Positions 7,998-22,721 are shown, counted from the first letter of the stretch. The stretch: 64,000 bases of DNA from Myxococcota bacterium (GCA_965223415.1 OZ245002.1:3136001-3200000), one strand, 5' to 3'. Notes: generated by a model from the sequence alone, not told the origin. Translations and numbers: made by a program.

Positions 7998-8841
7998 GAT
8001 GGTGACTCTGCTCTGGTTGGGTGCGTTCGGTTGCGTCGCGTCCCCCTCCGAGCACGCCGAGCATCGTGCCGGGGAGATGGGACTCTCCGCAAGGACCATT
8101 CGCGGGGGTCCGTTCCTCCACCGGGTCTTTGTTGCGCCGCGGACCTCCGCGGCTCGGGAGCAGGGTCGCTCCACGGGCCCCTTCGGATCACGCGGACCTG
8201 GATCACCTGCCGATCGCTTGCACGTCTATCTCGGCGGCGACGGCTCCCCCCGTGGGGCGCTACGCCATCGCCCGCCCGACCCGACGCCGCGGCAGCTCCT
8301 GGTGCTCGAGCTGATGGCCCACGACCCCAACCCGAGCCTCCTTCTGGGGCGCCCATGTTATCACGGGGTCGAGACCTGCGAGCCGGTCCACTGGACCCTG
8401 GGCCGCTACTCCGAGGCCGTCGTCGAGAGCCTGGTGGCCGCCTTCAAGCGGGTCGTGTCACCCGACCGACCGGTCGTCCTGATCGGCCACAGCGGCGGCG
8501 GCACCCTCGCGATGCTGATGGCCCCGCGGCTCCCGCAGGTGGAGGCGGTGGTGACCGTCGCCGGCAACCTGGACGTGGCGGCCTTCACGGAGCATCACGG
8601 GTTCGGGGCGTTCACGGGGTCGCTGGACCCGGCGGCGTTGCCGCCGCTGCCGGAGCGGGTGCGGCAGATGCACCTGGTCGGCGGGCGGGACGAGGTGGTT
8701 CCGCCGGCGATCGTGGAGGCGGCCATTCGGCGGCAGCCGGGAGCGCGAAGGGTCAATTCGCCGGAGAACGGGCACAACGAGGGGTGGGTGACCGTCTGGC
8801 CCAACGTTCTCGAGGTGCTCGAGGATGAGCTCGGCGGGTAG
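7996..8841 (+). CDS. Exported alpha/beta hydrolase (putative lipoprotein)
   Basis: MMVTLLWLGAFGC signal-like start; HVYLGGDG, LGRPCY, GHSGGG nucleophile elbow, G..D..V and late His; start codon uncertain. Confidence 0.75.
   Translation: MMVTLLWLGAFGCVASPSEHAEHRAGEMGLSARTIRGGPFLHRVFVAPRTSAAREQGRSTGPFGSRGPGSPADRLHVYLGGDGSPRGALRHRPPDPTPRQLLVLELMAHDPNPSLLLGRPCYHGVETCEPVHWTLGRYSEAVVESLVAAFKRVVSPDRPVVLIGHSGGGTLAMLMAPRLPQVEAVVTVAGNLDVAAFTEHHGFGAFTGSLDPAALPPLPERVRQMHLVGGRDEVVPPAIVEAAIRRQPGARRVNSPENGHNEGWVTVWPNVLEVLEDELGG
8163..8191 (-). promoter_or_regulatory. Putative ECF promoter motif copy 1 (inside the hydrolase ORF, pointing to the SEL1-caspase gene)
   Basis: GTGATCCG-N15-CGACCC. Confidence 0.65.
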
Positions 8842-8889
8842 CAGCTTCATCCGGAGCGTCTCGGACGCCGAGACCGAGCAGGCCTTCGA

Positions 8890-9180
8890 GGGGTGGTGAC
8901 GGTGCTGAGCCGGCCTGCGGTGTCGTAGCCCAGGTCGACGGTCTTGCCGTCCGGGCGGGCCACCTGGGTGAGGTTCTTGTCCAGGTCGCAGGTGAAGAAG
9001 GTTCGCGGGTCGTTCGGGTCCACCGGCGGGGGGTCGTACTCGCCTTCCTGGTCGAGGAGCGTGTAGCGGAAGACGTGGGCGGGCTGGCCGGGGGGCGTGA
9101 GGCTGGTGAGGTTGCCGCGCAGGTCGTAGGTGAAGTCGATGAAGCGGCTGTCGGGCAGCGTCTGGCGCGTGACGCCGCAG
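8890..9180 (-). pseudogene. RHS/YD-repeat fragment
   Basis: QTLPDSRFIDFTYDLRGNLTSLTPPG...LTQVARPDGKTVDLGYDTAGRLSTVTTP; flanking translation does not look RHS-like; ends approximate. Confidence 0.7.
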
Positions 9181-9513
9181 GCAATGCCGCAGACGGCACC
9201 GACCAGCCCTCCAAACAGCCGTTCCCTACGTGTCATCAGTCCTCGCAGAAGCAGCCCGTCGCGGGATCGTCCTCCTGGTAGACGACCGTGGGCCCGGCGG
9301 AGCACACGTTCGCGTGCCCTCCGAGGACGAGGAGAGGGGCAGGATGGCAGTGGCGCCGTAGCGAGCGGCATGGCCACCTAGCGAAGGGGAGCCACGCACA
9401 TTAGTCGGCGGTCGAGGAGTAGTTCAACCGCAATGAGCGGCAAACACGCTCGGATTCCGACGGAAACCGCCGGATCGCGTCAGACCTACCCCATTCGGGG
9501 GATACGATCCGCC

Positions 9514-10926
9514 CTAGAAGTCGAACCTCGCGCCGACGGTCAACGCGTACTGGTCGACGTAGCTGTCGCCGAGCCGCGTATCGAAGTCGATGAAGGCGAC
9601 CATGCCGCTGGTCAGCACCATGCTCACGCCGGCGCCGACGTTGAACACGTCGCGGTCCGGGCTCTGGGCGCGGAGGCTCAGGCGGGTGCGGTTCAGGTCG
9701 GCAGTGAAGCGGGCGTTGATCGTGCGGGAGTCGTTCTCGAACTCGTGCTCCCACTCGCCGCGCAGGTAGGGCGTGACGATGCCGCTGCCGGTCGAGATGT
9801 CGTAGCTGAGGGTCACGCCGAGGTCCGTCGTCAGGGACGTGATCGACTGGCCCTCGTAGGTGAGGTTCAGGCCCTGAGCACCGCTCTCCCGGGCGCCGTC
9901 GGTATCGACGCCGATGTAGTTCACCTGCAGGTAGGGGTCGATGCCGAGGGCGCCGCTGTCGAGGTTGGCCCCGGCGGCGACGCTCAGGCCCCACTGGTCG
10001 CCGCTCGGGTCGCTGCGCGCCGTCCGGTTCACCGTCGGGTAGACGATGCTGCGCTCGAGGCTGTAGTCCAGGTAGGAGTAGGTCGCGATCGCGTCGACGT
10101 AGAAGGCGTCCTGCTGCCAGGTGCCGTAGGCGGAGAGGCCGTAGGCGTTGCGGTCGAGCTCGCCGGCGCCCCCGTCGAAATCGTTGTCGACGCGGGAGTA
10201 GTTGAACGCCAGGCCGCCCACGAGCGGCTCGCTGAACCGGTAGTCGACACCGACCACCGCGCCGAGGGCGTCGAAGTCGAAGCCGACCTCCTCGTCCCGG
10301 CCGTCGAAGTCGCCCCAGGAGTACAGGCCGTTGCCCCAGAGCCCCCACTTGCCGAGCAGGTCCTGATCCCCCGCGGCGGACCGCTCGCGCAGGGCGCGCT
10401 CGATGTCCTCGCCCTGCAGCGAGCCCCCGTAGGCGTCCCGCAGGTCGAGGCCCGCGAACTGGATGCGCGGGCCGCCTTCGCGCAGGGCCACGAGCCGGTT
10501 GCCGATCACCTCCAGGTTGCGGATGGAGGTCTGGGTCGAGAGGGTGCCGGAGGCCGCCGCCTGGCCGTGGGCCAGGTCCTCGAGGGCCTCGTTGATCTCC
10601 GGGTCCGAGATGTCGAGCAGGCCCGGCACGACGAGCTCGCTGCAGCGATCGAAGAGGTCCTGGGTATCCGCCCCCCAGCCGCGGGTGCCGACGATCGGTG
10701 CCAGGTCGCCGCAGGTGGTGAGGACGAAGTCGCCGCTCAGGCTCTGGAGGCGGCTCTGGCCGCCGAGGGAACCCAGACTCCGCGGAGAGGGCGCCTGCCC
10801 TGCGGGAGCCCCGCCACCGCCACCGCCTCCACCACCGCCGCCCTGGCCGTAGGCCCCGCCGGCGAGGAAGATGCTCGCGATGATGAGCAGGAGCTGAATC
10901 CGGATCGCCCGCGCGCGGACCACCAT
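9514..10926 (-). CDS. Autotransporter beta-barrel outer-membrane protein with a very short passenger
   Basis: Signal peptide, Gly linker, WGLWGNG barrel start, VGVDYRF, PYL.GEWEHEF and terminal ARFDF. Confidence 0.88.
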   Translation of the reverse strand: MVVRARAIRIQLLLIIASIFLAGGAYGQGGGGGGGGGGGAPAGQAPSPRSLGSLGGQSRLQSLSGDFVLTTCGDLAPIVGTRGWGADTQDLFDRCSELVVPGLLDISDPEINEALEDLAHGQAAASGTLSTQTSIRNLEVIGNRLVALREGGPRIQFAGLDLRDAYGGSLQGEDIERALRERSAAGDQDLLGKWGLWGNGLYSWGDFDGRDEEVGFDFDALGAVVGVDYRFSEPLVGGLAFNYSRVDNDFDGGAGELDRNAYGLSAYGTWQQDAFYVDAIATYSYLDYSLERSIVYPTVNRTARSDPSGDQWGLSVAAGANLDSGALGIDPYLQVNYIGVDTDGARESGAQGLNLTYEGQSITSLTTDLGVTLSYDISTGSGIVTPYLRGEWEHEFENDSRTINARFTADLNRTRLSLRAQSPDRDVFNVGAGVSMVLTSGMVAFIDFDTRLGDSYVDQYALTVGARFDF

Positions 10927-10969
10927 GTTGACCTCCCTGGGACGACCTCGGCCCGGGCCGTCGCGGGGG

Positions 10970-10999
10970 ATCCTATACCGGGGAAATCCCCAGTGTCAA
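10970..10999 (-). promoter_or_regulatory. Sigma70-like promoter with palindromic operator upstream of the autotransporter
   Basis: Minus strand TTGACA-N18-TAGGAT; near-palindrome GGGGAAATCCCC at 10980-10991 in the spacer. Confidence 0.5.
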
Positions 11000-11139
11000 A
11001 GGGGGTTACGTCGGATCCTGCGTGGAGATGGGGCACTCCGCCGCCAGGCCCAGTGCCCAGAGACCGGCCAGGCCGAGCCCCAGCAGGAGCCGGGTCGAGC
11101 GCTCCGCCACCAGCCCGGCGCCGTCCCTGGCGCCCGGAA

Positions 11140-11454
11140 GCCCCGCCGGGCGGCGATCTCGAGGGGCTCCTCGAGGAAGCGCTCGACGATCTGCGCCTCG
11201 CCCTCGACTCCTTGCCCCCGGACCAGGCGGACCCGCTGACCCTGCTCGGCCTCCTGCGGCCGCGCCTGGAGCGACGGGTGCGGAGCGCGTCGCTCCGTCT
11301 CGACTGGCGGGTGAGCGACGCCGGGGAGGGCCGGGGCATGGCCAATTTTCGCCACCGCGCCGAGGAGCTCGGCGCCGACCTGCGGATCGAGTCGACCGAC
11401 GCGGGGACGCGCCTGCGGATGGTCTTTCCCGGGCCTGCCGCTACCGCCCCATGA
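11140..11454 (+). pseudogene. Internally deleted NarX/UhpB-type histidine kinase remnant
   Basis: LEEALDDLRLALDSL...LRLDWRV runs directly into GRGMANFRHRAEELGADLRIES..GTRL; no H, N or G1 box and no clear start. Confidence 0.55.
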
Positions 11455-11770: not shown

Positions 11771-11875
11771 CGGAGGTCCTTCCTGTCGGGTTCGGAGGTC
11801 GGGGTTCCGAGAGAAGGGGTGGGCCCCGATCCCGCGAGGGGACCGGGGCCCGGGGTGGGGGAGGGAGCGGACGAG

Positions 11876-12199
11876 CTAGCGGTTGCGGCCGGAGACGGCG
11901 CCCACGGTGCCGACGTTCGACACGGCGGTCGCGCGGTTGGCCGTGGCCTTGGTCGTGATGTCCCGGCTGCGGGTCTTGATCTTGACGTCGCCCTCGAGGC
12001 GCGAACCGGCCATCACGGAACCCACGTGGGCCTCGGCGAGCGCGCGGTTGGCACTGGCCTCGGTGTAGATGTTCCGGGTCCGGGCGTCGATGTCGATGTC
12101 CTTGCTCTTGGTGAAGAGGTCGCCCAGGAAGGCCTGCGCGCTCGCGGCGTAGCCGAGGACCAGGGCGGAGGTGACGAGGATCTGGAAGAAGCGGCGCAT
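11876..12199 (-). CDS. Small secreted two-repeat protein, copy A (107 aa)
   Basis: AAGGAG RBS; 23-aa signal ending AQA; paralogous to the two adjacent genes. Confidence 0.88.
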   Translation of the reverse strand: MRRFFQILVTSALVLGYAASAQAFLGDLFTKSKDIDIDARTRNIYTEASANRALAEAHVGSVMAGSRLEGDVKIKTRSRDITTKATANRATAVSNVGTVGAVSGRNR

Positions 12200-12259
12200 G
12201 ATGTTGATCTCCTTGGATCGGTTGGGTTGAGGTGGATCGCAACGCGCGATCACGGAGAG

Positions 12260-12288
12260 GGGTCGCGCTGGCGCGCGCTTCGGATCAC
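12260..12288 (-). promoter_or_regulatory. Putative ECF promoter motif copy 2 (copy A gene)
   Basis: GTGATCCG-N15-CGACCC. Confidence 0.75.
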
Positions 12289-12310
12289 GAACCGGCAGGA
12301 AACCGTCGCC

Positions 12311-12351
12311 AAAAAAGAGAAGCGGCGCCGATCCCGGAGGATCGGCGCCGC
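12311..12351 (-). terminator. Intrinsic terminator after copy B
   Basis: 13-bp stem GCGGCGCCGATCC/GGATCGGCGCCGC followed on the minus strand by TTCTCTTTTTT. Confidence 0.8.
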
Positions 12352-12378
12352 CCTTGGGGGTCGGCTGGCGAGCGGGAG

Positions 12379-12702
12379 CTAGCGGTCGCGGCCCGAGACC
12401 GCGCCCACCACGCCCACGTTCGTCACGGCTGTCGCGTTGTTCGCGCTGGCCTTCGTCGTGATGTCGCCGGTGCGCACCTTGATCTTGACGTCGCCCTCGA
12501 GCCGGGCGCCGGCCATCACCGAACCCACGTGGGTCTCGGCGAGCGCGCGGTTGGCACTGGCCTCGGTGAAGATGTCGCCGGTGCGGGCGTCGATGTCGAT
12601 GTCCTTGCTCTTGGTGACGAGGTCGCCCAGGAAGGCGGACGCGCTGGCGGCGTAGCCCAGGACGAGGGCGGAGGTAATGAGGATCTGGAAGAAGCGGCGC
12701 AT
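12379..12702 (-). CDS. Small secreted two-repeat protein, copy B (107 aa, 16 substitutions vs A)
   Basis: AGGAG RBS, signal peptide ending ASA, same repeats. Confidence 0.88.
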   Translation of the reverse strand: MRRFFQILITSALVLGYAASASAFLGDLVTKSKDIDIDARTGDIFTEASANRALAETHVGSVMAGARLEGDVKIKVRTGDITTKASANNATAVTNVGVVGAVSGRDR

Positions 12703-12769
12703 GATGGTGATCTCCTAGGGATCTGAAGGGTGGATTGGATGGACCGCGGCCCTGCGGTCCATCGCTGAG

Positions 12770-12798
12770 GAGTCGGCGCTGGCTCTGTCTCGGATCAC
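12770..12798 (-). promoter_or_regulatory. Putative ECF promoter motif copy 3 (copy B gene)
   Basis: GTGATCCG-N15-CGACTC. Confidence 0.75.
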
Positions 12799-12838
12799 GC
12801 GTGACGCAGAAACGCAAGATCCGACCCCGGAATGGGAA

Positions 12839-12868
12839 GCGGCGCCGACCCCGGAGGATCGGCGCCGC
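12839..12868 (-). terminator. Hairpin/terminator after copy A'
   Basis: Same stem as 12322-12351 with one substitution; weak U tract. Confidence 0.6.
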
Positions 12869-12894
12869 CTTGGGGGTCGGCTGGGGAGCGGGAG

Positions 12895-13218
12895 CTAGCG
12901 GTTGCGGCCGGAGACGGCGCCCACGGTGCCGACGTTCGACACGGCGGTCGCGCGGTTGGCCGTGGCCTTGGTCGTGATGTCCCGGCTGCGGGTCTTGATC
13001 TTGACGTCGCCCTCGAGGCGCGAACCGGCCATCACGGAACCCACGTGGGCCTCGGCGAGCGCGCGGTTGGCACTGGCCTCGGTGTAGATGTTCCGGGTCC
13101 GGGCGTCGATGTCGATGTCCTTGCTCTTGGTGAAGAGGTCGCCCAGGAAGGCCTGAGCGCTCGCGGCGTAGCCGAGGACCAGGGCGGAGGTGACGAGGAT
13201 CTGGAAGAAGCGGCGCAT
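12895..13218 (-). CDS. Small secreted two-repeat protein, copy A' (107 aa, same protein as A)
   Basis: AAGGAG RBS, ATG at 13218. Confidence 0.88.
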   Translation of the reverse strand: MRRFFQILVTSALVLGYAASAQAFLGDLFTKSKDIDIDARTRNIYTEASANRALAEAHVGSVMAGSRLEGDVKIKTRSRDITTKATANRATAVSNVGTVGAVSGRNR

Positions 13219-13278: not shown

Positions 13279-13307
13279 GGGTCGCGCTGCCCCGGGGGCC
13301 GGATCAC
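13279..13307 (-). promoter_or_regulatory. Putative ECF promoter motif copy 4 (copy A' gene)
   Basis: GTGATCCG-N15-CGACCC. Confidence 0.75.
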
Positions 13308-13379: not shown

Positions 13380-14273
13380 ATGGCGGAAGGCGCGGCAGCG
13401 GTCGGCGATCTCCTCGACCGCGCCGTCGCGGGCCAGGAGACCGCCCTCCTCCAGCTGGCTCGGCGAGTCACCTCCCTCATCGAGGGATGGGGCGCCTACA
13501 CCGTCCAGAGCGACTGGCGGATCCTCACCCAGGAGGCCACCCAGCAGGCCCTGGACGGCTGGCGGAGCAGCCGCCGGGAGGCCCAGGCCGCCCAGTTCCT
13601 GGAGGGGATCGTCCGAAACCGCTTCTGGGGCGAGGTGTTGGACGAGATGTCCCAGAACAACCCGCGGGCCGGCGAGCTCCTCTTCCCCACCATCCGCCGG
13701 CTCCTGGCCCGCTGGGACGGCTCCCGGCGCTTCGAGGCCAGCTGGGACGACGTCGTCCAGGAGGCCACCCACCAGCTCTGGGAGCGCTGGGCTACTGGCG
13801 AGGTGGAGCGGCCCTGGTCCCTCCTGTGCACCATCGCCAAGCGGCGCTTCCTCGATCAGACCCGGAGGGCCAAGGCCACGGAGGATCCGGAGATCCTGGA
13901 CGACCTCTCTGAAGAGGGCGAGGAATCCCCCGGGGGAGAGGTGTTCGCCCAGCAAGCGCTGGACGTGCTAGAGCCCGAGGAGCGGGGCATCGTCGTGCGG
14001 ATGGACATCGAGGGGCAGACCCGCGTCGAGATCGCGAGGGAGCTCGAGATGACCGAGGGCCAGGTGCTCTCGATCCGGCGCGCCGGGCTTCGGCGGATCT
14101 GGCGCTGGGCGGGGGCCGACCTTCCGCCGGAGATCCGGGACGTCTGGGAGGCGATGTTCAAGGGCGCCAAGCGGGCGGGCCCGGAGCAGGTGGCCGCCCA
14201 GCTGGGAATCACCCCCGGGGAAGTCGAGCAGCGGGTCGAGCAGGCCCGGGTGCTCCTGGGGCTGGCGGGATGA
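13380..14273 (+). CDS. ECF-type sigma70 factor with apparently duplicated sigma2 and sigma4 domains (297 aa)
   Basis: DDVVQEAT...LCTIAKRRFLD (sigma2) and LEPEER..V....EG.T..EIARELEMTEGQV.S...RAGLRRI (sigma4), each with an additional diverged copy; GGAGGG RBS. Confidence 0.85.
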   Translation: MAEGAAAVGDLLDRAVAGQETALLQLARRVTSLIEGWGAYTVQSDWRILTQEATQQALDGWRSSRREAQAAQFLEGIVRNRFWGEVLDEMSQNNPRAGELLFPTIRRLLARWDGSRRFEASWDDVVQEATHQLWERWATGEVERPWSLLCTIAKRRFLDQTRRAKATEDPEILDDLSEEGEESPGGEVFAQQALDVLEPEERGIVVRMDIEGQTRVEIARELEMTEGQVLSIRRAGLRRIWRWAGADLPPEIRDVWEAMFKGAKRAGPEQVAAQLGITPGEVEQRVEQARVLLGLAG

Positions 14274-14296: not shown

Positions 14297-14326
14297 GTGA
14301 TCCGAATGGGGGGGGTGGCGCGACCT
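14297..14326 (+). promoter_or_regulatory. Putative ECF promoter motif copy 5 (anti-sigma gene)
   Basis: GTGATCCG-N16-CGACCT; the spacer contains a G8 run. Confidence 0.6.
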
Positions 14327-14364: not shown

Positions 14365-15159
14365 ATGAGCGAACCCAATGACCCTCGCCTCGAGGGCGAC
14401 GACGCCTTCGAGGACGAGCTCGACCGCGCCACCGTCCTGCGGCTGCGCGGCGAGGACCCCCGCGCCGACCGCTGGCAGCCGGAGGACCAGGATCTGGTCC
14501 AGTTCGCGCGGAACCCCCGCGCCCTGGCGCCGGAGCTGCGCGCGCGGATCGACGCCTACCTGGAGAAGCACCCGGCCGAGCGCGACGCCCTGGCCGCCTT
14601 CGAGGTGCTCGCGCCGGCCCCGCCGGTGGCCGAGGCCGCCGAGGCGCCGTCGCTCCTGGCCCGCCTCACCTCTTCCCTCGCCGCCCTGGTGCCCGCTCCC
14701 CGGGCCGTCGCCTCCGCCGCGGCGCTCTTCCTGGTGGCCGGCGTGGGCTTCCTCCTGACCCAGGAGCCGGACGAGCCCGTCTGGCGGGGCCCGGACACGC
14801 CGATCGAGGATCCGATCGGCGGCCCGGACACCGGGCACCCGCCCCTCGACCTGGCCGAGATCGAGCTGGTCCCCGGCGTCGTGATGCCCCTGGAGGCCGC
14901 CTCCCTGCCCACGGCGGGCGAGGTGCTGCTGATCCTCGTCCTGCCCGGTGAGCCCCCGGAGGCGCCCGTCGAGCTGACCCTCCTCCGGGAAGGCGCCGCC
15001 GAGCCCCTGGCCCAGCGGAGCGCCCCCGCCTCCGAGGGGCCCGCCCCCGCCGTCCAGCTGCGTGTACCCGCCGAAGACCTCGAGCCCGGCGCCTACCGGG
15101 TGGAGGTCTTCGAAGGGCCTGCCGTCCCGCCGGTCGAGTTCCTCTTCGAGGTGAGGTGA
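14365..15159 (+). CDS. Putative single-pass membrane anti-sigma factor
   Basis: Directly downstream of the sigma gene; ASD-like helices (PEDQDLVQFA...LRARIDAYLEKHP), one TM helix, C-terminal beta domain (L.PGAYRVEV). Confidence 0.65.
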   Translation: MSEPNDPRLEGDDAFEDELDRATVLRLRGEDPRADRWQPEDQDLVQFARNPRALAPELRARIDAYLEKHPAERDALAAFEVLAPAPPVAEAAEAPSLLARLTSSLAALVPAPRAVASAAALFLVAGVGFLLTQEPDEPVWRGPDTPIEDPIGGPDTGHPPLDLAEIELVPGVVMPLEAASLPTAGEVLLILVLPGEPPEAPVELTLLREGAAEPLAQRSAPASEGPAPAVQLRVPAEDLEPGAYRVEVFEGPAVPPVEFLFEVR

Positions 15160-15184
15160 TCCGGGCGCCCCCGTCGGGCGACTC
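15156..15184 (+). promoter_or_regulatory. Putative ECF promoter motif copy 6
   Basis: GTGATCCG-N15-CGACTC. Confidence 0.75.
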
Positions 15185-15239: not shown

Positions 15240-15554
15240 ATGCTGAAGCGCATCCTCTCCATCCTCGCCCTGACCGGGGTCGCCTGCGGCGGCACGCCGT
15301 CGGCGGCCGACGACGGCAAGCCGGTCACGGTCTGCCGGCACGACGCCCAGGGCACCGTGGCCGTCACGAACATCGGCAGCGTGGGCCCCGGCTCCGGCAG
15401 CACGCGGGTTCGCGTCGTGACCGGCAACCGGACGACCGTTGTCGATCCCGAGGGGGAGTGCGTCTTCACCGACGAGCCGCCGCGCCGCCATCCCCTCCGA
15501 GGGGGGGAGGCGAACTTCCCCCGGACGCCCGACGCTTCCGAGGTGCGGAGGTGA
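15240..15554 (+). CDS. Small exported protein with AVTNIGSV motif
   Basis: AAGGA RBS; signal with possible lipobox GVAC; two further Cys. Confidence 0.7.
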   Translation: MLKRILSILALTGVACGGTPSAADDGKPVTVCRHDAQGTVAVTNIGSVGPGSGSTRVRVVTGNRTTVVDPEGECVFTDEPPRRHPLRGGEANFPRTPDASEVRR

Positions 15555-15579
15555 TCCGAGTCGCCGCCTCGCGCGACTC
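15551..15579 (+). promoter_or_regulatory. Putative ECF promoter motif copy 7 (CsgG-like operon)
   Basis: GTGATCCG-N15-CGACTC. Confidence 0.75.
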
Positions 15580-15616
15580 CTCTCGGGGCACGCAGCCCCC
15601 AGCAAAGGAGACCGAC

Positions 15617-15913
15617 ATGGGACGCAAACTCGCCGCCTTCGCCATCATTCCGATGATGCTCTTCGCGGGATCCGCCACCGCGAAGATCAACGAGGGCAAC
15701 ACCTCCGCCAAGAGCAAGCTGAACGTCCTGAAGGCCAAGACGTCGCACCGCCTCAAGGCCGATGAGGGGCAGGACCCCTGCAACCAGAGCCTGAACGCGG
15801 GCAACGTGATCATTCCCGAGGGCACCCGCGCTCCCCGCGAGGTGACCGTCGTGATCGAGGGAGACGTGACCAATGTTGGTTCGATCGTTGGCTCCGCGCG
15901 CTGCCGCCGCTAG
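15617..15913 (+). CDS. Small secreted protein with two Cys and GDVTNVGSI motif
   Basis: AAGGAG RBS; signal ending ATA. Confidence 0.78.
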   Translation: MGRKLAAFAIIPMMLFAGSATAKINEGNTSAKSKLNVLKAKTSHRLKADEGQDPCNQSLNAGNVIIPEGTRAPREVTVVIEGDVTNVGSIVGSARCRR

Positions 15914-17453
15914 CCGCCTCTTCATGGCCGCCGCCCTGGCGCTGCTCTTCGGAGCCTGCGCCACTCCCGGCAACCAGGCTGCCTACACCAGCCGCACGCC
16001 GGGGCTCGACCCCCAGACGACCCGCACGGTCTACTCCGGCGCGCTGGCCTGCATGGACGACCTGCTCCAGTCCTACGGGCCCCAGGGCACGATCATCACC
16101 AGCGTCGGCATCCCGGACGCGACCGGTCAGGTCCAGGTGGGCTCCCGCGACATGCTGATGTCGGCGATCTCCGACATGACACGGCGGAGCGGTGCCTTCA
16201 CCTACGTCGACCTCGACGTCACTCGCGAGGAGTCGCTGGCCATCCACGGCAACTCGCCGGACAAGACCTCGCTCTGGCCCACGTACCTGATCCGCGGGAC
16301 GATCTCGGGCCTCGACGAGAGCGTCATCGACGTGTCGAAGGGCCTGAGCTTCGGCGTGGAGCTCAGTGAGAACGATGCCGCCGCGGCCTACGCCAACAGC
16401 CGCACCTCGTCGGTGGTGTCCCTCGACCTTTTCATCGTGCGCTCGAAGGACCTGGTGCTCCTGCCCGGCCTCAAGGCGAGCAACTCGCTGGCGATCAGCC
16501 GCGCGGGCTCGGCCAGTGAAGCCGGGATCACGATCAAGCAGGTGGGCCTCGACTTCAGCGTCGAGCAGGAGGAGTCCGAGAGCCTGGCTCACGCGGTGCG
16601 CACGCTGATCGAGCTCGGCACTGTCGAGCTGATCGGCAAGTTCGCCCAGGTGCCCTACTGGCGCTGTCTCCAGGTCGAGGGGACGAACCCCGTGGTGATG
16701 AAGGAGGCGGCCGACTGGTACGCCGACATGGACGAGGACGAGAAGATCCTCTTCAGCCAGCGCGTGCTGATCGCGCGGGGCGAGTTCGCCGGGCCCGCCA
16801 CCGGCGAGCTGGACGCCGCCACCAAGGCCGCCATCGTCCGCTACCAGCAGGTGAACGGGCTGATCCCGACCGGTCGGCTCTCCTTCGAGCTCTACCACTC
16901 GATGCTCGGCAACGATCGCCCTGCCGAGGTGGGGGAGCCGGTCACGTTCATCGAGCAGGACGAGACGCCCGACCCGGTGGCGGACCAGGTGCCCGTGCGC
17001 GAGCCCCTGCTCCTGACGCTCACGTCGGCGCGTGGATCCCAGCCGAGCTTCGCGCCGAACGAGATGCTGAGCATCCAGGTCGGCGCGTCGCGGGACGCCT
17101 ACGTGTACTGCTACTACCGGGACGGCGCCGATCGCATCTCGCGCATCTACCCGAACCAGTTCCAGCCCGATCCCTATCTGCCGGCGGGCCAGTACGTAAC
17201 GGTTCCGCCCGTCGACGCCGCGGGACACCCCACGCGCTTCGGCATCCGCTTCGAGCATCCCGGCGCGGCGGAGGAGGTCGCCTGCCTCGCCTCGGACCGG
17301 GAGGTCGGCATCTGGCTGCCCCGGACGCTGAAGCAGCGGGATCTCGCCCCGCTGCCCGTCGGGAGCCTGGCCGAGCTCGAGGCCGCCTTCGAAGAGCTCG
17401 ACGGCGAAGGCCTCGTCCGCGCGCGGCTGCCCATCGAAGTGACCCGCGAGTAG
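15873..17453 (+). CDS. CsgG/HfaB-like lipoprotein with peptidoglycan-binding and DUF4384-like domains
   Basis: Lipobox FGAC; IPDATGQ...DMLMSAI...F.YVD and LIRGTISGLD...VSLDL (CsgG fold-like); TGELDAATKAAIVRYQQVNGLIPTG (PG_binding_1); DAYVYCYY..G...RIYPN (DUF4384-like); alternative start 15924. Confidence 0.78.
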   Translation: MLVRSLAPRAAAASRLFMAAALALLFGACATPGNQAAYTSRTPGLDPQTTRTVYSGALACMDDLLQSYGPQGTIITSVGIPDATGQVQVGSRDMLMSAISDMTRRSGAFTYVDLDVTREESLAIHGNSPDKTSLWPTYLIRGTISGLDESVIDVSKGLSFGVELSENDAAAAYANSRTSSVVSLDLFIVRSKDLVLLPGLKASNSLAISRAGSASEAGITIKQVGLDFSVEQEESESLAHAVRTLIELGTVELIGKFAQVPYWRCLQVEGTNPVVMKEAADWYADMDEDEKILFSQRVLIARGEFAGPATGELDAATKAAIVRYQQVNGLIPTGRLSFELYHSMLGNDRPAEVGEPVTFIEQDETPDPVADQVPVREPLLLTLTSARGSQPSFAPNEMLSIQVGASRDAYVYCYYRDGADRISRIYPNQFQPDPYLPAGQYVTVPPVDAAGHPTRFGIRFEHPGAAEEVACLASDREVGIWLPRTLKQRDLAPLPVGSLAELEAAFEELDGEGLVRARLPIEVTRE

Positions 17454-17513
17454 CGCGGCTGCTCATCTGCACCCGCGAGCAACCCCTCACCCATCCTTCC
17501 TGGAGACACGATC

Positions 17514-18068
17514 ATGAGCTTCCGAATGCGACGGCCGGCGTGGGTCGCTGGCCTGATCCTGGGTCTGCTGCTGGGCCTTCCGCTCGGCGCAGCCGCCCAG
17601 GACACCCTCCCGACCGCCCCGGTCCGGATGTACGACGAGCCCCTCTCGGCCGACGAGCTGGCCCAGAAGCTCTTTCCGCCCAAGCTCCGCTCGATCGTCC
17701 CGGTCGAGGAGCAGCCGAAGCCCGAGGTGATCGGCTACGCGATCCAGTTCGGCTTCGACTCGGCGGAGCTCCTGCCCGCGGCGAAGCCCTACCTGGACGA
17801 GCTCGGCAAGATGATGAACCTGGAGCGGCTCTCGAGCGCGAGCCTGGTCGTCGAAGGCCACACGGACGCGATCGGCTCCGAGGACTACAACCTCGACCTG
17901 TCGCTGCGACGGGCCCAGGCCGTGGCCGGCTACCTGGCGAAGGCGCACCGCATCGACCCGAACCGCCTCGTGACCCAGGGCCGCGGCGAGAGCCGGCCGC
18001 TGCCGGACCGGGCGCCGACCGATGGCCAGAACCGCCGCGTCCAGTTCGGCGGCCTCGGCGCTCGTTAG
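17514..18068 (+). CDS. OmpA-family peptidoglycan-binding protein
   Basis: IQFGFDSA, VEGHTDAIGS..YN..LS.RRA..V and NRRV motifs; signal peptide. Confidence 0.92.
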   Translation: MSFRMRRPAWVAGLILGLLLGLPLGAAAQDTLPTAPVRMYDEPLSADELAQKLFPPKLRSIVPVEEQPKPEVIGYAIQFGFDSAELLPAAKPYLDELGKMMNLERLSSASLVVEGHTDAIGSEDYNLDLSLRRAQAVAGYLAKAHRIDPNRLVTQGRGESRPLPDRAPTDGQNRRVQFGGLGAR

Positions 18069-18084
18069 GTCAGGGAGCCTACCC

Positions 18085-20292
18085 GTGGTCCGTAGCCTCC
18101 TGGTTGCCCTCGCCGCACTCGCGGCCCTGTTCGGTAGCGTCGCTCCCGGCTGGGCCGCGAAGCGGGCCCTGATCGTCGGGATCAACGACTACCGGGGCGA
18201 GAACAGCGGTGGGCGCTGGCGCGACCTCCGCGGCGCCGTGAACGACGCCGAGGCCATGCGCTCGCTGCTGGTCTCCCGCTTCGGCTTCGCGGGGGACGAC
18301 GTGGTGCTGCTGCGCGACGCCGAGGCGACCCGGGAGCGCATCCTCGCCGAGATCGAGGGGCACCTGGTCGCTCCGGCGAAGCCCGGCGACGTCGCCTTCT
18401 TCCACTTCGCCGGTCACGGCTCCCAGGTGCGCAACGCCCAGGGCCAGGAGCTCGATCGGCTGGACGAGACGATCGTCCCCGCCGATTCGCGGCTGGGCGC
18501 GCCGGACATCCGCGACAAGGAGCTGCGGGTCCGCTTCAACGACGTGCTCGACCGGGGTGCCGACCTGGTCGCCGTCTTCGACAGCTGCAGCAGCGGCTCC
18601 ATCCTGCGCTCGCTCCAGGCGGTGCGCTTCCTGCCGCCGGGCGACGCGCCGGCTCCCGCCCTGGCGCCGGAGCGCCGGGCGCCGCCGGAGGAGCGCGGCG
18701 CGCTGCTGCTCTCCGCCGCCTCGAGCGGGCTGCCTGCCGCCGAGACGAAGGACGCCGCCGGCCGGCCTCGCGGCGCCCTGAGCTTCGCCCTGATCCGCGC
18801 CCTGCGGGAGGCGGCGCTGGACGAGCCCGCGGACCAGCTCTTCCTGCGCGTGCGCAGCGCGCTGCTGGCCGAGGACCTGGGCCAGGCCCCGGTGCTCGCC
18901 GCCACCTCCGAGCGTCGCGCCCGCCCGCTGCTCGGCGGGGAGGCGCAGGCGGCGGGCGCGACCCGGGTCGGCGTCCTGCGCGTCCGCAGCGACGGCCTCG
19001 TCGAACTCGACGCCGGCGCGGCCAGCGGCCTGAACCCGGGGGCCGAGCTGGTCTCGAACCGCATTGGCGATACGCGCCGGCTGCGCGTGGTCGAGGTGCC
19101 GGGCGTCGCCCTGGCCCTGGCCCGGGTGAGCGGCGGCGATGCGGCGTCGCTCCAGCCGGGCGATCTCTTCCGTCTCGACCGTTGGAGCGCCCCGGACGGC
19201 GCCGCGCTGCGCATCCTGCTGCCCGAAGCGGCGCCGCCCGCCCAGGGGAAGGCGCTTCACGCCGCCGCCGCGGCACTGCGCGTCGAGGCCGCCGCCCGGG
19301 GCGTGACCTGGGTCGAGGATCCGACCACCCAGCGCCCGACCCACCGCCTGGTGTGGCGGGCGGCCGGCGGCTGGATGCTTCGCGGGCCCGACGCCGAGCA
19401 GCCCGTCGGTGCGCTCGACCCGGCGCGCGCCGCCTCCCTCGTCTCCGGGCTGCCGCAGGGCGCGAGCCTGCTCGTGGAACTTCCCCCCGCCCCGGGCCTG
19501 CGCCGCGCCCTCGCCGAGCGGGCCGCGGCCGCCGGAGGCTCCATCGAGCTGGTCGGCCCGGAGGCGGCCCACTTCGCGCTCGTCGGCGTCCTGCGCGGCG
19601 ACGGCGTTCACCACGCCTGGGTGCGGCCCGGGGCTTCGCTTCGCCGTGAGGTCGGCGGGCTCCCGCCGCGCAGCGACTGGACGAAAGCCCAGGGTGCGAG
19701 CGCTGCCCTCGGCGCCTCCCTCGACGCGCTGCTGCGCATCCGCTCGTGGCTGACGCTTCCGGCGCCGCCCGACGAGGGGCGCTTCCCCTACCGCCTCGCC
19801 CTGCGCCGCGAGAGTGACGGCCGCCGCGTTCCCGGCGGCGCCGTGCGCGCCGGCGAGCGCTACCGCATCGCCCTCGAGGCCGAGCGCCCGGGGCCGCGCT
19901 CATCGATCGAGCCGCGCTACGTCTACGTCTTCGCCATCGACGCCTTCGGCCGCCAGGCGCTGGTGTTCCCGACCGCTGACCGCGGCAACGCCGAGAACCG
20001 CATGCCGCCCCCGGGCGCCCTCGGCGCCCCCGCGCCGCCGGTGCTTCCCGTCGGCTCGATCGAGATCGCGCCGCCCTTCGGCCACGAGACCCTGGTCATG
20101 GTCACCAGCGCCACGCCCTTGGCCGACCCCCGGGTCCTCGAGGGCCGCGGCGTCCGCACCCGCACCGGCTCCGCCCTCGAGCAGCTGCTCGGCTGGGTCG
20201 GTACCCCGTCCCGCGCGCCCCGTACCGCCACCCCCACCAGCTGGGGCATCCAGCGGCTCTCCCTCGTGAGCCTGCCCCGTCAAGGAGAGTGA
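18085..20292 (+). CDS. Secreted caspase-like (C14, metacaspase-type) protease with C-terminal DUF4384-like domain
   Basis: Signal ending GWA; KRALIVGINDY, LRGAVNDA, FAGHGSQ, DETIVPAD and FDSCSSG; YVYVFAID.FG....VFP tail. Confidence 0.88.
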   Translation: MVRSLLVALAALAALFGSVAPGWAAKRALIVGINDYRGENSGGRWRDLRGAVNDAEAMRSLLVSRFGFAGDDVVLLRDAEATRERILAEIEGHLVAPAKPGDVAFFHFAGHGSQVRNAQGQELDRLDETIVPADSRLGAPDIRDKELRVRFNDVLDRGADLVAVFDSCSSGSILRSLQAVRFLPPGDAPAPALAPERRAPPEERGALLLSAASSGLPAAETKDAAGRPRGALSFALIRALREAALDEPADQLFLRVRSALLAEDLGQAPVLAATSERRARPLLGGEAQAAGATRVGVLRVRSDGLVELDAGAASGLNPGAELVSNRIGDTRRLRVVEVPGVALALARVSGGDAASLQPGDLFRLDRWSAPDGAALRILLPEAAPPAQGKALHAAAAALRVEAAARGVTWVEDPTTQRPTHRLVWRAAGGWMLRGPDAEQPVGALDPARAASLVSGLPQGASLLVELPPAPGLRRALAERAAAAGGSIELVGPEAAHFALVGVLRGDGVHHAWVRPGASLRREVGGLPPRSDWTKAQGASAALGASLDALLRIRSWLTLPAPPDEGRFPYRLALRRESDGRRVPGGAVRAGERYRIALEAERPGPRSSIEPRYVYVFAIDAFGRQALVFPTADRGNAENRMPPPGALGAPAPPVLPVGSIEIAPPFGHETLVMVTSATPLADPRVLEGRGVRTRTGSALEQLLGWVGTPSRAPRTATPTSWGIQRLSLVSLPRQGE

Positions 20293-20293
20293 G

Positions 20294-20581
20294 ATGTTCC
20301 GCAAGCTCGCCCTGATCCTGCTCGCCTGCGGCGCGCTCGCCCTCCCGGCCAGCGCCCAGCCGCCCTGCAACACCAGCAAGGGCTCGACCCAGGCGATGGA
20401 GTGTCTGGCGAAGAAGCTCCACGATCTCGAGTCGGAGCTGCGACGCGCCATCGTCCTGTTCGAGCGCCACCACTGCCCGGAGGGCTGGATCGCCCTCGAG
20501 GAGGCCAAGGTAGGGGAGATCCGCGGGACGTTCCGGAACCCGAGCTTCCCGCTGGTCTACTGCAAGAAGCTCGACGGCTAG
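20294..20581 (+). CDS. Small secreted Cys-containing protein
   Basis: AGGAG RBS; signal ending ASA; AIVLF...CPEGW...LVYCKK. Confidence 0.75.
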   Translation: MFRKLALILLACGALALPASAQPPCNTSKGSTQAMECLAKKLHDLESELRRAIVLFERHHCPEGWIALEEAKVGEIRGTFRNPSFPLVYCKKLDG

Positions 20582-20592
20582 CGCGGGGCAGA

Positions 20593-21117
20593 ATGCGATA
20601 CCGCGAAGCCATCCGGGCGGACGCGGAGGCCGTCGCGGCGCTTCACGCCGAGAGCTGGCGCGCCCACTACCGCGGGGCCTACCGCGACGGGTACCTGGAT
20701 GGGGACGTCGTCTCCGACCGTCGCAGGGTCTGGGAGGAGCGCTTCGCGTCCCCGCCGCCGAATCAGCACGTCGTCCTGGCGGAAGGCGCCGGCGCGCTGG
20801 TCGGCTTCGCATGCGTCTACGGCGGGGAGGACGAGCGATGGGGATCGCTGCTCGACAACCTGCACGTCCGCCCCGGGCAGCAGGGGCGCGGCGTCGGCGC
20901 CGCGCTGGTCGCGGAGGTGGCCGCATGGTGTCGCCGGCGGTTCCCGAACGCGGGGCTCTACCTGTGGGTGCTGGCGGAGAACGAGGGCGCGCAGCGCTTC
21001 TACGCGCGCCTCGGCGCCAGCGATCGCGGAGGGGAGCGCTCCGAGCCGCCGGGTGGAGGGGAGATCCACGGCCGACGCTATGCGTGGGACGGGATCCCGG
21101 ACCTTCCGCGGCCCTGA
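20593..21117 (+). CDS. GNAT-family N-acetyltransferase
   Basis: LHVRPGQQGRGVG and LWVLAEN..A.RFY..LG motifs. Confidence 0.9.
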   Translation: MRYREAIRADAEAVAALHAESWRAHYRGAYRDGYLDGDVVSDRRRVWEERFASPPPNQHVVLAEGAGALVGFACVYGGEDERWGSLLDNLHVRPGQQGRGVGAALVAEVAAWCRRRFPNAGLYLWVLAENEGAQRFYARLGASDRGGERSEPPGGGEIHGRRYAWDGIPDLPRP

Positions 21118-21213
21118 GGCCGAAACGGGAACCGCGCCGGCCCTGGGGAGGGACCGGCGCGGTTCTTTCGTGGAGCCAACCGGGAGGCGGAGGAACCAGA
21201 CCTCCCGCGGCTG

Positions 21214-21405
21214 CTACACGGGAAGGCTGTAGGAGGGGGTCGGGGTCCGGGGCGCCCGCGGCGGCTCGCCGGACATGCGGTCGAAGCGTCCCGCCCCGGC
21301 GAAGGAGCGCCGGCAGCCCGTGCACTCGGGGTCCCGTTCGCCGACGACGGTCAGGCAGTGCAGGCAGTAGCAGGGAGAGGTCTCGTTCGGGTTCGGGAAC
21401 GTCAT
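21214..21405 (-). CDS. Small CxxC...CxxC (zinc-ribbon-like) protein, 63 aa
   Basis: AGGAGG RBS; CLHC...CTGC; preceded by the promoter motif. Confidence 0.65.
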   Translation of the reverse strand: MTFPNPNETSPCYCLHCLTVVGERDPECTGCRRSFAGAGRFDRMSGEPPRAPRTPTPSYSLPV

Positions 21406-21426
21406 GATGTCGGGCCTCCTGCCGAG

Positions 21427-21455
21427 GAGTCGAGCGACGAGCCGATCCGGATCAC
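21427..21455 (-). promoter_or_regulatory. Putative ECF promoter motif copy 8
   Basis: GTGATCCG-N15-CGACTC. Confidence 0.75.
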
Positions 21456-21478
21456 CCGGATGGCCGGCGCTTCGGAAT

Positions 21479-21817
21479 TCAGGCCGCGAAGGGCGCGCCC
21501 TCGCGAATCGAGTCGACGACGTCGGCGAACGCCGGGTCGAAGGCGTCGACGTGGTCGGACCACCAGCGGAGCACGCCCGGGGTGAGGACCAGCCACGCCA
21601 GGACCCGATGGATCTGGGTCCAGACCGTCTCGTCGAGGGCGCTCCGCTGGAGGTGGATCTCCTGGCACAGGGAGAAGAGGCCCCGCAGGTGGGCACTCAG
21701 GCGCCGGGCGTCCTCGTCGGACAGGCACTCGGACCCGGCGAGCTCGGCCAGCAGCCGGTGCAGGTCCGGGTTGAGCTGGAGCCGGCGAAGCAGTCGGTGG
21801 CTGGCGAGGCGTCCCAT
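21479..21817 (-). CDS. Hypothetical helical protein
   Basis: GGAG RBS; PGVLRWW....AFDPAFADVVD tail; preceded by the promoter motif. Confidence 0.6.
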   Translation of the reverse strand: MGRLASHRLLRRLQLNPDLHRLLAELAGSECLSDEDARRLSAHLRGLFSLCQEIHLQRSALDETVWTQIHRVLAWLVLTPGVLRWWSDHVDAFDPAFADVVDSIREGAPFAA

Positions 21818-21862
21818 ATCGGTGTCTCCGTGGGGCGGGCCATCCGCGGCCCGCGTGCCCAG

Positions 21863-21891
21863 GGGTCGGGACAGGCGCGGTTTCGGATCAC
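21863..21891 (-). promoter_or_regulatory. Putative ECF promoter motif copy 9
   Basis: GTGATCCG-N15-CGACCC. Confidence 0.72.
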
Positions 21892-21925
21892 CGCGGAAGC
21901 GGGGCCTCCGGAGTGGCCCGAAGCG

Positions 21926-21954
21926 GTGATCCGGGGCGCTCTCGTGCGCGACTC
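21926..21954 (+). promoter_or_regulatory. Putative ECF promoter motif copy 10 (divergent from copy 9)
   Basis: GTGATCCG-N15-CGACTC. Confidence 0.75.
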
Positions 21955-21974
21955 CTGGTCACAGGAGCCCCGCC

Positions 21975-22658
21975 ATGCTGCGAACCCACGACCGACCGCA
22001 TCCCCCGCAGAGCCGGATCGCCCCCGAGGCGCGCCCGATCGTCCTGCTCCACGGCTTCGCCTCGACGCCTCGGGTGATGGGCCCCCTGGCCCGCCACCTC
22101 GGCCGTGCCCGGGGCAGCGAGACGGTCTGCGCCGAGGTCTCCTCCACCCGCGACCTGCGGGCCCAGGCCCACGCCGTGCTGCGCACGGTGAAGGAGCTGG
22201 CGATCCGCTCCGGAGGGCCGGTGGACGCGGTGGCCCACTCGATGGGCGGCCTGATCGCCACCTACGCGATGAAGGCCCTCGACCGGGGGCGCCACATCGC
22301 CACCGTCGTCACCTTGGGGACGCCCCACGGGGGAGCCCCCCTGGCCAGGATGGGCGCCCTGCTGAAGAACGAATTCGCCATCGTTCTCGGGCAGATGCAG
22401 CCCGGCGCCGGATTCCTTGCGGAGCTCGAGGGCCTTCCGGTCCCGGAGCGCTCCCGGCTCGTCTCGGTGGCCGGCCGCCGCGATCTGGTGGTCCCCTCCG
22501 ACTCGTCCCGCGTCGCGGCGGGCGAGCGCCAGCGGACCCTGTGGGTCGACGGGGCCACTCACAGCACGCTGTTGATCAGTCGCTCGGTCATGCGCCTGGT
22601 CGCGGCGGTTCTCGACCGGCCCGCGGCCGAGCCCGCCCGGGCCCTGGCGGCGGCCTGA
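21975..22658 (+). CDS. Lipase/esterase-type alpha/beta hydrolase
   Basis: VLLHGF, AHSMGG, TLGTPHGG, D.VVP and late His. Confidence 0.88.
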   Translation: MLRTHDRPHPPQSRIAPEARPIVLLHGFASTPRVMGPLARHLGRARGSETVCAEVSSTRDLRAQAHAVLRTVKELAIRSGGPVDAVAHSMGGLIATYAMKALDRGRHIATVVTLGTPHGGAPLARMGALLKNEFAIVLGQMQPGAGFLAELEGLPVPERSRLVSVAGRRDLVVPSDSSRVAAGERQRTLWVDGATHSTLLISRSVMRLVAAVLDRPAAEPARALAAA

Positions 22659-22672
22659 AAAAGCCGGGCCGG

Positions 22673-22701
22673 GTGATCCGGGCCGGGGCCCACCGCGACT
22701 C
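22673..22701 (+). promoter_or_regulatory. Putative ECF promoter motif copy 11
   Basis: GTGATCCG-N15-CGACTC. Confidence 0.75.
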
Positions 22702-22721
22702 CTCGGTGGGAGGACACGACG

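Follow-up and report, generated by a model that had tools for sequence, protein, structure and literature searches.

The window, as the word is used here, is a 64-kb stretch of DNA from an uncultured Myxococcota bacterium (OZ245002.1:3136001-3200000), whose genome, G000, is a single contig of 5.83 Mb. A locus of 14.5 kb in this window holds a gene for a sigma factor of the extracytoplasmic function (ECF) type (13380..14273, plus strand, 297 amino acids), followed by a gene for a putative single-pass anti-sigma factor (14365..15159, plus strand, 264 amino acids), and a bipartite promoter-like motif occurs eleven times in the locus. Judged from sequence comparison, the GTGATCCG-type -35 box (GTGATCC) and the CGACYY -10 box of this motif are very probably promoter elements read by the sigma factor encoded at 13380-14273.

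Motif copies and the genes they precede

The spacer of the motif is N15 when counted in the form GTGATCCG-N15-CGAC and N16 when written as TGATCC-N16-CGAC. The first copy (8163..8191, minus strand) is not intergenic: it lies antisense within the gene of an alpha/beta hydrolase with an N-terminal signal-like stretch (7996..8841, plus strand), 167 nt before the gene of a lipoprotein-like Sel1/coiled-coil/caspase (C14) protein (5460..7997, minus strand), to which the hydrolase gene is head to head. The hydrolase is 47% identical to its G201 homologue over 273 columns, and the gene in G201 contains a one-mismatch N16 site 133 nt before the caspase start. Three further minus-strand copies (12260..12288, 12770..12798 and 13279..13307) precede three tandem genes for secreted proteins of 107 amino acids (11876-12199, 12379-12702 and 12895-13218, together 11876..13218, minus strand), each protein with two 37-residue beta-rich repeats and each gene with its own copy; the last of these copies is back to back with the region upstream of the sigma gene.

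The copy at 14297..14326 (plus strand), whose spacer is one base longer, is the predicted promoter of the anti-sigma gene. In the next two plus-strand copies (15156..15184 and 15551..15579) the TGA of the motif is the stop codon of the preceding gene, which is the anti-sigma gene for the former and the gene of a secreted protein of 104 amino acids for the latter. The copy at 15156 stands before this 104-residue protein, and the copy at 15551 heads a run of genes for a secreted protein of 98 amino acids, a CsgG/HfaB-like lipoprotein with peptidoglycan-binding and DUF4384 domains according to profile matches (15873..17453, plus strand), an OmpA-family periplasmic protein, likewise a profile match (17514..18068, plus strand), an exported caspase (C14)-DUF4384 protein (18085..20292, plus strand) and a protein of 95 amino acids. 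The two small secreted proteins span 15240..15913 (plus strand), and the one of 98 residues is conserved directly before the CsgG-like gene. Four more motif-led genes lie at 21214..22904. The copy at 21427..21455 (minus strand) precedes a CxxC protein of 63 amino acids, whose homologue in G201 also has a copy; that at 21863..21891 (minus strand) precedes an open reading frame (ORF) of 112 amino acids without homologue in the compared loci; that at 21926..21954 (plus strand) precedes a PGAP1-like hydrolase, whose homologue in G097 also has a copy; and that at 22673..22701 (plus strand) precedes an ORF of 60 amino acids.

The pattern GTGATCCG-N14-17-CGAC has exactly 11 matches in the window, against a mean of 0.16 and a largest count of 3 in shuffled sequences (0 of 100 shuffles reached 11). 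All eleven copies reported in the first-pass annotation of this DNA were recovered at their places and on their strands. The CGAC box and the two pyrimidines after it are present in 11 of 11. The spacer is N15 in ten copies and N16 in the one at 14297; two boxes at a fixed distance, oriented towards genes, agree with ECF promoters. GTGATCCG itself occurs 13 times, and the count bears out that the additional sites, 45484 and 57673, are without the CGAC box. The nearest same-strand start codon is 22-69 nt from CGAC in ten copies and 167 nt from it at 8163, close to the distances given before (about 20-70 nt, and about 165 nt for the first copy), with the amendment that the 8163 copy is intragenic and antisense. 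DNA contigs from public sequencing runs, which may stem from the source sample, match the region except for one A>C in one contig.

The whole G000 genome has 21 matches of the pattern, 11 of them inside the 14.5 kb of the locus. TGATCC-N16-CGAC was found 95 times in G000; 11 of these matches are intergenic by gene calls and 10 of the 11 are in the locus, whose share of the intergenic DNA is 2,667 of 641,810 bases. This tally includes the 8163 copy, as the gene caller began the overlapping hydrolase gene too late. The corresponding N17 form has 8 matches, 4 intergenic and 1 in the locus. A weight matrix was made from 22 sites of other genomes and applied to the whole of G000, a scan that had been suggested earlier. 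The eleven sites of the window took ranks 1-11 with 22.2-33.7 bits, and the next-best site (21.8 bits) is inside a gene. The training sites were chosen by the core pattern, so that the independent information of this ranking is in the flanks only; 88 matches scored at least 15 bits and the best 70 of these 88 were examined. The proposal of a local regulon is supported by these results.

The genes behind the copies at 12260, 12770 and 13279 are tandem paralogues; two of the units are identical in 406 of 415 positions and differ mostly in or beside the motif spacer, so that these three copies are not independent. It is scarcely credible that the motif serves a regulator other than a sigma factor, belongs to an RNA element or arose through duplication and codon bias. 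Coding DNA does contain TGATCC..CGAC frequently, with a periodicity of 3 bases, and three copies stem from tandem duplication, but the motif is asymmetric with a fixed spacer length and variable spacer sequence, faces starts 22-69 nt away, travels with the sigma lineage, and has no Rfam match in 5000-25000. The window has no tRNA.

Link between the motif and the local sigma factor

The sigma factor carries both of its domains in duplicate, as described below. Among 225 genomes of the class, 6 have this doubled form; in a sample of 401 genomes from the phylum it was found in 3, with 0 outside the class. Relatives with 50-66% identity number 26 in a protein collection, and one of these carries the name Myxococcota; the four genome records with relatives are assigned to Myxococcota, Myxococcales or Deltaproteobacteria.

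Of 11 loci compared, counting the window, 10 have a motif copy behind the stop codon of the sigma gene that is directed into the anti-sigma gene (locus L009 was excluded as a repeat of L008, and loci returned twice were counted once). Seven of these copies are exact N16 sites, two are N16 sites with one mismatch, the window has an exact N17 site, and one locus, in genome G020, has none. In the loci of the other carriers the motif precedes homologues of the genes of the window, in clusters, and the carrier loci scanned have 39 intergenic N16 sites and 1 N17 site (shortest-match pattern, the window and one duplicate record included). GTGATCCR-N15-CGACYY occurs 14, 11, 9, 7, 5 and 0 times in the six carrier genomes and at most 7 times in other genomes of the class; in five non-carriers with 6-7 matches each the sites are scattered and form no cluster.

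The first-pass annotation had named the local sigma factor as the obvious candidate reader, and the copy after the sigma stop codon, together with the same boxes in a sister family (see below), supports this; the reading of the motif as ECF -35 and -10 boxes gains support from the same comparison of relatives. It had also remarked that no sense-oriented copy stands before the sigma gene, which is correct for the window, and had drawn from this the possibility of an unlinked ECF sigma factor. That doubt is largely removed. The missing copy is the family's normal design, because the promoter made by the sigma factor for itself drives the anti-sigma gene. In place of the motif, a TGTAT- or GGTAT-like stretch common to five loci lies upstream of the sigma gene. 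This stretch is probably a housekeeping -10 box. The sigma gene is not motif-driven here. In G097 and G106 the sigma gene follows a caspase gene and is downstream of a motif copy, so that autoregulation by read-through is possible in these two genomes.

We regard it as very improbable that an unlinked ECF sigma factor of G000, for instance an ECF11- or ECF33-like one, reads the motif with the local sigma factor as a bystander. Besides the missing sense copy, such a reader could be sought among about 21 other ECF-like proteins in G000, two of which score near the local sigma factor against the profile of the sister family, and the ECF33 -35 box, TGAACC in the available text of PMC7826278, is one base away. 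Yet none of the 20 other ECF genes of G000 that could be scanned (one gene was uncalled) has a copy with at most one mismatch in the 300 nt before it or the 150 nt after it, the rest of G000 gave no high-scoring intergenic site in front of a gene among the best 70 of 88 matrix matches, and the motif follows the sigma stop codon across the relatives. Moreover, genomes G216 and G002 and two Azospirillum plasmids have a CsgG-like module with neither a doubled sigma factor nor an intergenic copy at the module, where G216 has an ordinary ECF sigma factor.

The sister family (alignment A4) is matched by the outer sigma2 domain and is present in 81 of the 225 class genomes and in 31 of the 401 phylum genomes, all of the latter within the class; it is not found in G000 at an E-value of 1e-30. 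We took the best 30 sister loci (L037-L066, from 30 genomes), and a sigma gene was called in 29. Behind the sigma stop codon, TGATCC-N17-CGAC is present exactly in 15 of the 29 and with one mismatch in 6 of the 29, mostly with the TGA of the stop codon as the first bases of the -35 box; an N16 site with at most one mismatch was found there in 0 of 29. The family thus resembles the doubled form in its boxes, in the promoter over the sigma stop codon and in an anti-sigma factor with a double zinc-binding anti-sigma (ZAS) unit (of the 26 next genes called, 21 encode two zinc motifs), and differs in having one sigma2 and one sigma4 domain, the N17 spacer and a periplasmic DUF928 domain (3 of 3 anti-sigma proteins scanned). 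Its best solved relative is the sigma-E of R. sphaeroides (2q1z, E 5e-19). In four sister loci the anti-sigma gene is translationally coupled and the motif is absent; where present, TGATCC-N17-CGACT is predicted to drive it. No description of the family was found in the literature searched, most subscription papers being outside the search.

Genomes G082, G097 and G106 carry both sigma types. At the doubled locus they have N16 sites. The single sigma gene is followed by an N17 site in G082 and G106, and by an N17 site with one mismatch in G097. In a tree of sigma2 domains (90 columns, rough support values) the outer, inner and sister domains stand apart from those of 21 other ECF-like proteins of G000 with support 99/99. 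Both sigma2 copies would accordingly come from one ECF lineage restricted to the class. The doubled form would read N16 and the single-domain sister N17, which would separate the two regulons where both occur.

Several observations weigh against this picture. The separation of the lineage rests on domain profiles and on the 90-column tree, whose bootstrap is not settled. The full-length sister profile gives 71 bits for the local sigma factor and 70 and 66 bits for two unrelated ECF proteins of G000, true members scoring 123-237 bits. The spacer rule is not strict, as the window's own anti-sigma promoter is N17. The spacer shift could instead be due to the inner linker, which in the doubled form is about 9 residues shorter than that of the sister (parsed in 13 of 29 sister proteins). 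The -35 recognition helix reads G-S-L-K-R-Y-L-R in the sister and G-Q-V-L-S-I-R-R in the inner sigma4, both with TGATCC as the box. Finally, the divergent carrier G020 is without anti-sigma gene, motif or module. Its doubled sigma factor (L023:11715-12551) has 36% identity, and the same genome has seven single-domain sister sigma factors.

The doubled sigma factor and its anti-sigma factor

With both of its domains doubled, the local sigma factor exceeds an ECF core by about 110 residues. Its order is sigma2' (residues ~8-84), sigma2 (85-162), a linker, sigma4 (189-243) and a sigma4-like helix-turn-helix (HTH) domain, sigma4' (244-295). Where the minimal ECF architecture has one sigma2 and one sigma4, there is an additional sigma2 before and a sigma4-like HTH after. 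The core domains are recognised above the cut-offs (Pfam r2 25.3 bits, cut-off 24; r4_2 35.5 bits, cut-off 25.7; TIGR02937 49.5 bits, cut-off 42.9), and one ECF profile matches sigma2 twice in the ORF. There is no sigma3 between sigma2 and sigma4, and the inner linker of about 26 amino acids is under the 50-residue ECF criterion (PMC7826278). In profile-profile comparison, the outer sigma2 (residues 1-91) matches the inner one with E 1e-4 and probability 54, and the C-terminal HTH matches the inner sigma4 with E 3e-6 and probability 88, cross-comparisons scoring nothing. An AlphaFold model of the protein has a mean predicted local distance difference test (pLDDT) score of 86; its residues 7-81 align to sigma2 of 2q1z (R. 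sphaeroides sigma-E) with Z 6.7 and a root-mean-square deviation (rmsd) of 2.7 over 75 residues, and its residues 80-250 align to several solved ECF proteins. A point against the doubling is that the C-terminal HTH, which stands after sigma4, also resembles sigma3 (Pfam E 1e-4; 22.8 bits, below the cut-off of 25.3), and because of this weak resemblance we call it sigma4-like. The best NCBIfam subfamily gives 42.7 bits against a cut-off of 202. Atlas searches returned only generic sigma clusters for the sigma factor and only leads below 0.9 for the small protein; longer fused forms of the sigma factor were not found, which is weak evidence. Nested insertion and domain-wise duplication were considered as the origin and are not separable on the 90 tree columns.

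Conservation differs between the copies. In region 2.3-2.4, 14 of 23 columns of the inner sigma2 are conserved to 90% or more, against 4 of 19 of the outer one; for the sigma4 helix the figures are 14 of 20 (inner) and 4 of 19 (outer). The inner sigma2 keeps the WDD..QE motif and the loop before region 2.4. The WDD..QE motif binds core polymerase. This is consistent with bioRxiv 534826. The inner sigma2-sigma4 pair is the likely reader and would bind polymerase and DNA, with the outer sigma2' mainly a docking surface for the anti-sigma factor; we hold this division of labour at about even odds.

It is possible, but rather unlikely, that the local sigma factor reads the motif through its outer or a mixed pair of domains, or that the extra domains act in autoinhibition or are inert instead of forming an anti-sigma handle. 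A whole-length comparison puts the outer sigma2' nearer than the inner copy to the sister family that shares the motif (median 30 against 19 bits), so that the outer copy could share promoter reading. It is also nested inside that family in the tree, and the recognition helix of the inner sigma4 is diverged relative to that of the sister family. On the other hand, the outer copies are less conserved at the regions that contact DNA and core, the outer sigma2' is without the acidic WDD motif, the outer helix carries acidic residues, and the solved ECF proteins align to the inner pair.

The anti-sigma protein (14365-15159) aligns with proteins bearing two zinc units and a membrane helix. Its own zinc ligands are lost: among ten aligned anti-sigma proteins the H-x3-C-x2-C zinc motif occurs as two units in six, as one unit in one and not at all in three, the window's included. 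A zf-HC2 domain is recognised in 4 of the 10, a cupin in none, and the alignment has a hydrophobic helix. We rejected a one-to-one pairing of the double zinc unit with the doubled sigma factor, because the sister family has the same unit and the window's anti-sigma factor has lost the ligands.

As a class I anti-sigma factor, the protein would bind the sigma factor with its N-terminal domain. The predicted complex of sigma and anti-sigma factor has an ipSAE score of 0.75 against 0.00 for the best of three controls, a mark reached by 116 of 157 solved pairs and by 2 of 215 mismatched pairs. The runs agree in at least 89% of contacts, and the partner has a pLDDT of at least 73. The predicted interface is on residues 18-58, 189-241 and 265-297 of the sigma factor, with none in the inner sigma2. 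As a reservation, the score may reflect likeness to solved sigma/anti-sigma pairs.

An Arg-Gly pair stands just outside the membrane helix in 9 of 9 full-length anti-sigma rows of the alignment, the window's among them. The Sel1-caspase and the 18085 protein both have their His-Cys motifs intact (AGHG and DSC), so both C14 proteins would be caspase-like proteases with an intact dyad. Caspase-like proteases of this kind cut after basic residues (PMC6426788, in the part available). The genome has an M50 protease by Pfam search, although a strict regular expression for site-2 proteases matched nothing. Release by proteolysis is suggested by the analogy with DdvA/DdvS, by this M50 protease and by the two exported C14 proteases; that the exported caspase-like proteases make the first cut at Arg-Gly, before an RseP-type cut, is offered tentatively and would not be our expectation. 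By eye, Arg-Gly or Arg-Ser pairs recur in linkers of the OmpA protein, both caspases and the anti-sigma protein (window 5460-20292) and are possible caspase cut sites.

Regulon content, proposed mechanism and known systems

The motif-led genes encode the three 107-residue secreted proteins, two other small secreted proteins, the CsgG/HfaB-like lipoprotein, the OmpA protein, two caspases, the PGAP1-like hydrolase and three small ORFs. A 37-residue period in the small proteins is as high in 0 of 200 shuffles for both window paralogues. The repeats of the 107-residue proteins are rich in Thr and Val, and their model (pLDDT 71.5) is mostly long strands. The CsgG-like protein matches CsgG with E 0.023 (14.4 bits, cut-off 20.8), HfaB with E 3e-5 (23.3 bits, cut-off 300) and DUF4384 with E 7e-15; no CsgG was among its solved-structure matches. 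The gene is present in 7 of the 225 class genomes, namely five of the six sigma carriers and in addition G216 and G002. Tandem small repeat genes, each led by a motif copy, number three in the window and five in G201.

The regulon might build an amyloid-like fibre or coat, with two-repeat proteins exported through the CsgG/HfaB-like lipoprotein; this is our leading specific guess, held somewhat below even probability, and a broader function in the envelope is no less likely. The fibre or coat is disfavoured by the only fold match of the 107-residue model, a weak one to the HET-s amyloid (Z 2.8, rmsd 5.9, 65 residues aligned), and by the count of 0 for the curli repeat QxGxxN in the window's small proteins. 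The curlin family PF07012 was not found in G000, and membership in curli was rejected on both the missing repeats and the missing curlin match. In our estimate there is an even chance that the regulon serves not a fibre but general envelope repair or surface display, or that it is a defence module based on proteases. The locus contains OmpA, peptidoglycan-binding, hydrolase, autotransporter and caspase proteins, the CsgG and HfaB matches are below cut-off, many hits of the CsgG model are paralogues outside curli systems (PMC3521004, available part), and some anti-phage systems, as far as the accessible reports describe them, combine caspase-like proteases with sigma/anti-sigma pairs. The fibre or coat is favoured over these because the small repeat proteins have multiplied in tandem, each with a promoter to itself, which suggests a bulk structural product, and by distant versions of the module such as that of G216, where QxGxxN proteins are found near the CsgG-like gene; homology to the window's proteins is not claimed.

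In the G216 locus (L034:876-5822) a CsgG-like DUF4384 gene is accompanied by an OmpA gene, two caspases, an ECF/anti-sigma pair of the ordinary kind and Q/N-rich proteins. The Q/N-rich proteins contain 6 and 13 QxGxxN repeats and are not called curlin by Pfam; on sequence they are a candidate for an undescribed functional amyloid. A CsgG-like/OmpA module is also present in plasmids of cultured Azospirillum (NZ_CP029832.1 and NC_016587.1; loci L032 and L033); in A. lipoferum 4B it includes a small secreted protein with two repeats, and Azospirillum offers a tractable host for the module. Homology of the 107-residue proteins to the repeat proteins of G216, G002 and Azospirillum was considered and dropped, as the scores were at or barely above those of 50 shuffles.

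The proposed mechanism is as follows. The sigma gene would be transcribed from a housekeeping promoter and not from the motif, and the sigma factor would be held by the membrane anti-sigma factor encoded next door, docked on the outer sigma2'. Exported caspases may cut the anti-sigma factor at Arg-Gly, followed by an RseP-type cut. The released sigma factor, with polymerase and DNA bound by the inner sigma2-sigma4 pair, would fire the eleven local promoters, one of which would make more anti-sigma factor and so give negative feedback, and the regulon would build a cell-surface structure from the small two-repeat beta proteins by way of the CsgG/HfaB-like lipoprotein. The full proposal, in which a duplication split the ECF jobs into outer handle and inner reader, shifted the spacing by one base, insulated the doubled form from its single-domain parent and now drives export of amyloid-like fibres whose caspases cut the anti-sigma factor, is doubtful as a whole.

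If true, a separate docking domain for the anti-sigma factor would be a new regulatory design and would provide an orthogonal switch with eleven natural promoters; the regulon also hints at a CsgG-like system, not yet described, for the export of repeat subunits. The setting of spacer length by ECF sigma factors is called unexplained in the available part of a structural study (bioRxiv 534826), and the single-domain sigma factor with N17 and the double-domain one with N16, both with the same boxes, form a natural pair in which it could be tested. The usual definition of an ECF group relies on an autoregulated promoter in front of the sigma gene; screens of that kind would miss this lineage because its promoter lies over the sigma stop codon.

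The promoter type and the sigma architecture are apparently undescribed and the locus apparently a real local ECF regulon. ECF11 has a -35 box GTGATC/TGATCC and a 16-nt spacer (PMC5507510, Table 3; PMC7826278, supplement; available parts). ECF11 (sigma-E/ChrR of R. sphaeroides; PSPTO_1043 of P. syringae) is thus alike in -35 box and spacer, but its -10 box is CGTA in place of CGAC and its partner a soluble ChrR cupin in place of a membrane anti-sigma factor; here there is no autoregulation in G000, and there are doubled domains and a surface-protein regulon. ECF33 (EcfQ of B. japonicum) shares a -10 box with a conserved AC and a single-pass zinc-finger anti-sigma factor at +1, but its -35 box, TGAACCTTT, is absent here, and the members described in the available text are proteobacterial, self-regulated and single-domain (PMC7826278). 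Filing under ECF11, ECF33 or ECF25 was rejected, as boxes or partners differ from those given there. TGATCC has 0 occurrences in the searched supplement text of PMC7826278, whose motif logos and Table S2 lie outside that text, so that a matching ECF group may be hidden. In the literature searched, only studies of RpoE in oxidative stress, judged by title or abstract, pair TGATCC with an ECF sigma factor. Duplicated sigma domains are not among the non-canonical ECF proteins in the available part of the review PMC8999054, and neither a doubled ECF protein nor a tandem ZAS was found in the literature searched, most subscription papers again being outside it.

Three systems are comparable in other respects. 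DdvS/DdvA of Myxococcus xanthus is an ECF sigma factor with a membrane ZAS (CHCC), for which a caspase-like first cut and a second cut by RseP have been proposed (PMC11506125, available part). It is likewise a Myxococcota ECF with a membrane anti-sigma factor, but has a CHAT protease within the anti-sigma factor and a regulon of CBASS (cyclic oligonucleotide-based antiphage signalling system) and CRISPR genes, whereas the locus described here has separate C14 genes, a doubled sigma factor and a secreted-protein regulon. In type III-E CRISPR (Csx29/Csx30/RpoE) a caspase-like protease cleaves a sigma-binding protein, and DUF4384 is found in Csx30 and fused to proteases (bioRxiv 2022.08.17.504292, available part); in contrast, no CRISPR component was seen here, the proteases are exported and the cleavage is hypothetical. 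Curli (CsgA/CsgG) and the HfaB of the Caulobacter holdfast resemble the locus in having small secreted beta-repeat proteins beside a CsgG/HfaB-like lipoprotein; curli differ in that the window's repeats are of 37 residues without QxGxxN and the pore-like protein has additional peptidoglycan-binding and DUF4384 domains.

The remaining features of the locus are minor. Near-identical GC hairpins at 12320-12353 and about 12840-12875 (minus strand), the first with a T tail, lie between the tandem 107-residue genes, each of which may be its own transcription unit. An autotransporter beta-barrel gene (9514..10926, minus strand) is conserved in the loci and has no motif copy; upstream of it is a sigma70-like TTGACA-18-TAGGAT at 10999-10970, and a Gly-rich low-complexity run near its start (10802-10844) is where public contigs break. 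A short orphan RHS-repeat ORF of remnant-like appearance (8847-9377, minus strand) lies between the hydrolase and autotransporter genes, and an ORF at 11022-11465 (plus strand) without a Pfam hit recalls the C-terminal end of a histidine kinase, of which we take it to be a fragment. Two further neighbouring pairs of ECF genes are found elsewhere in the genome (G000:C1:150002-151528 and 3285767-3287586).

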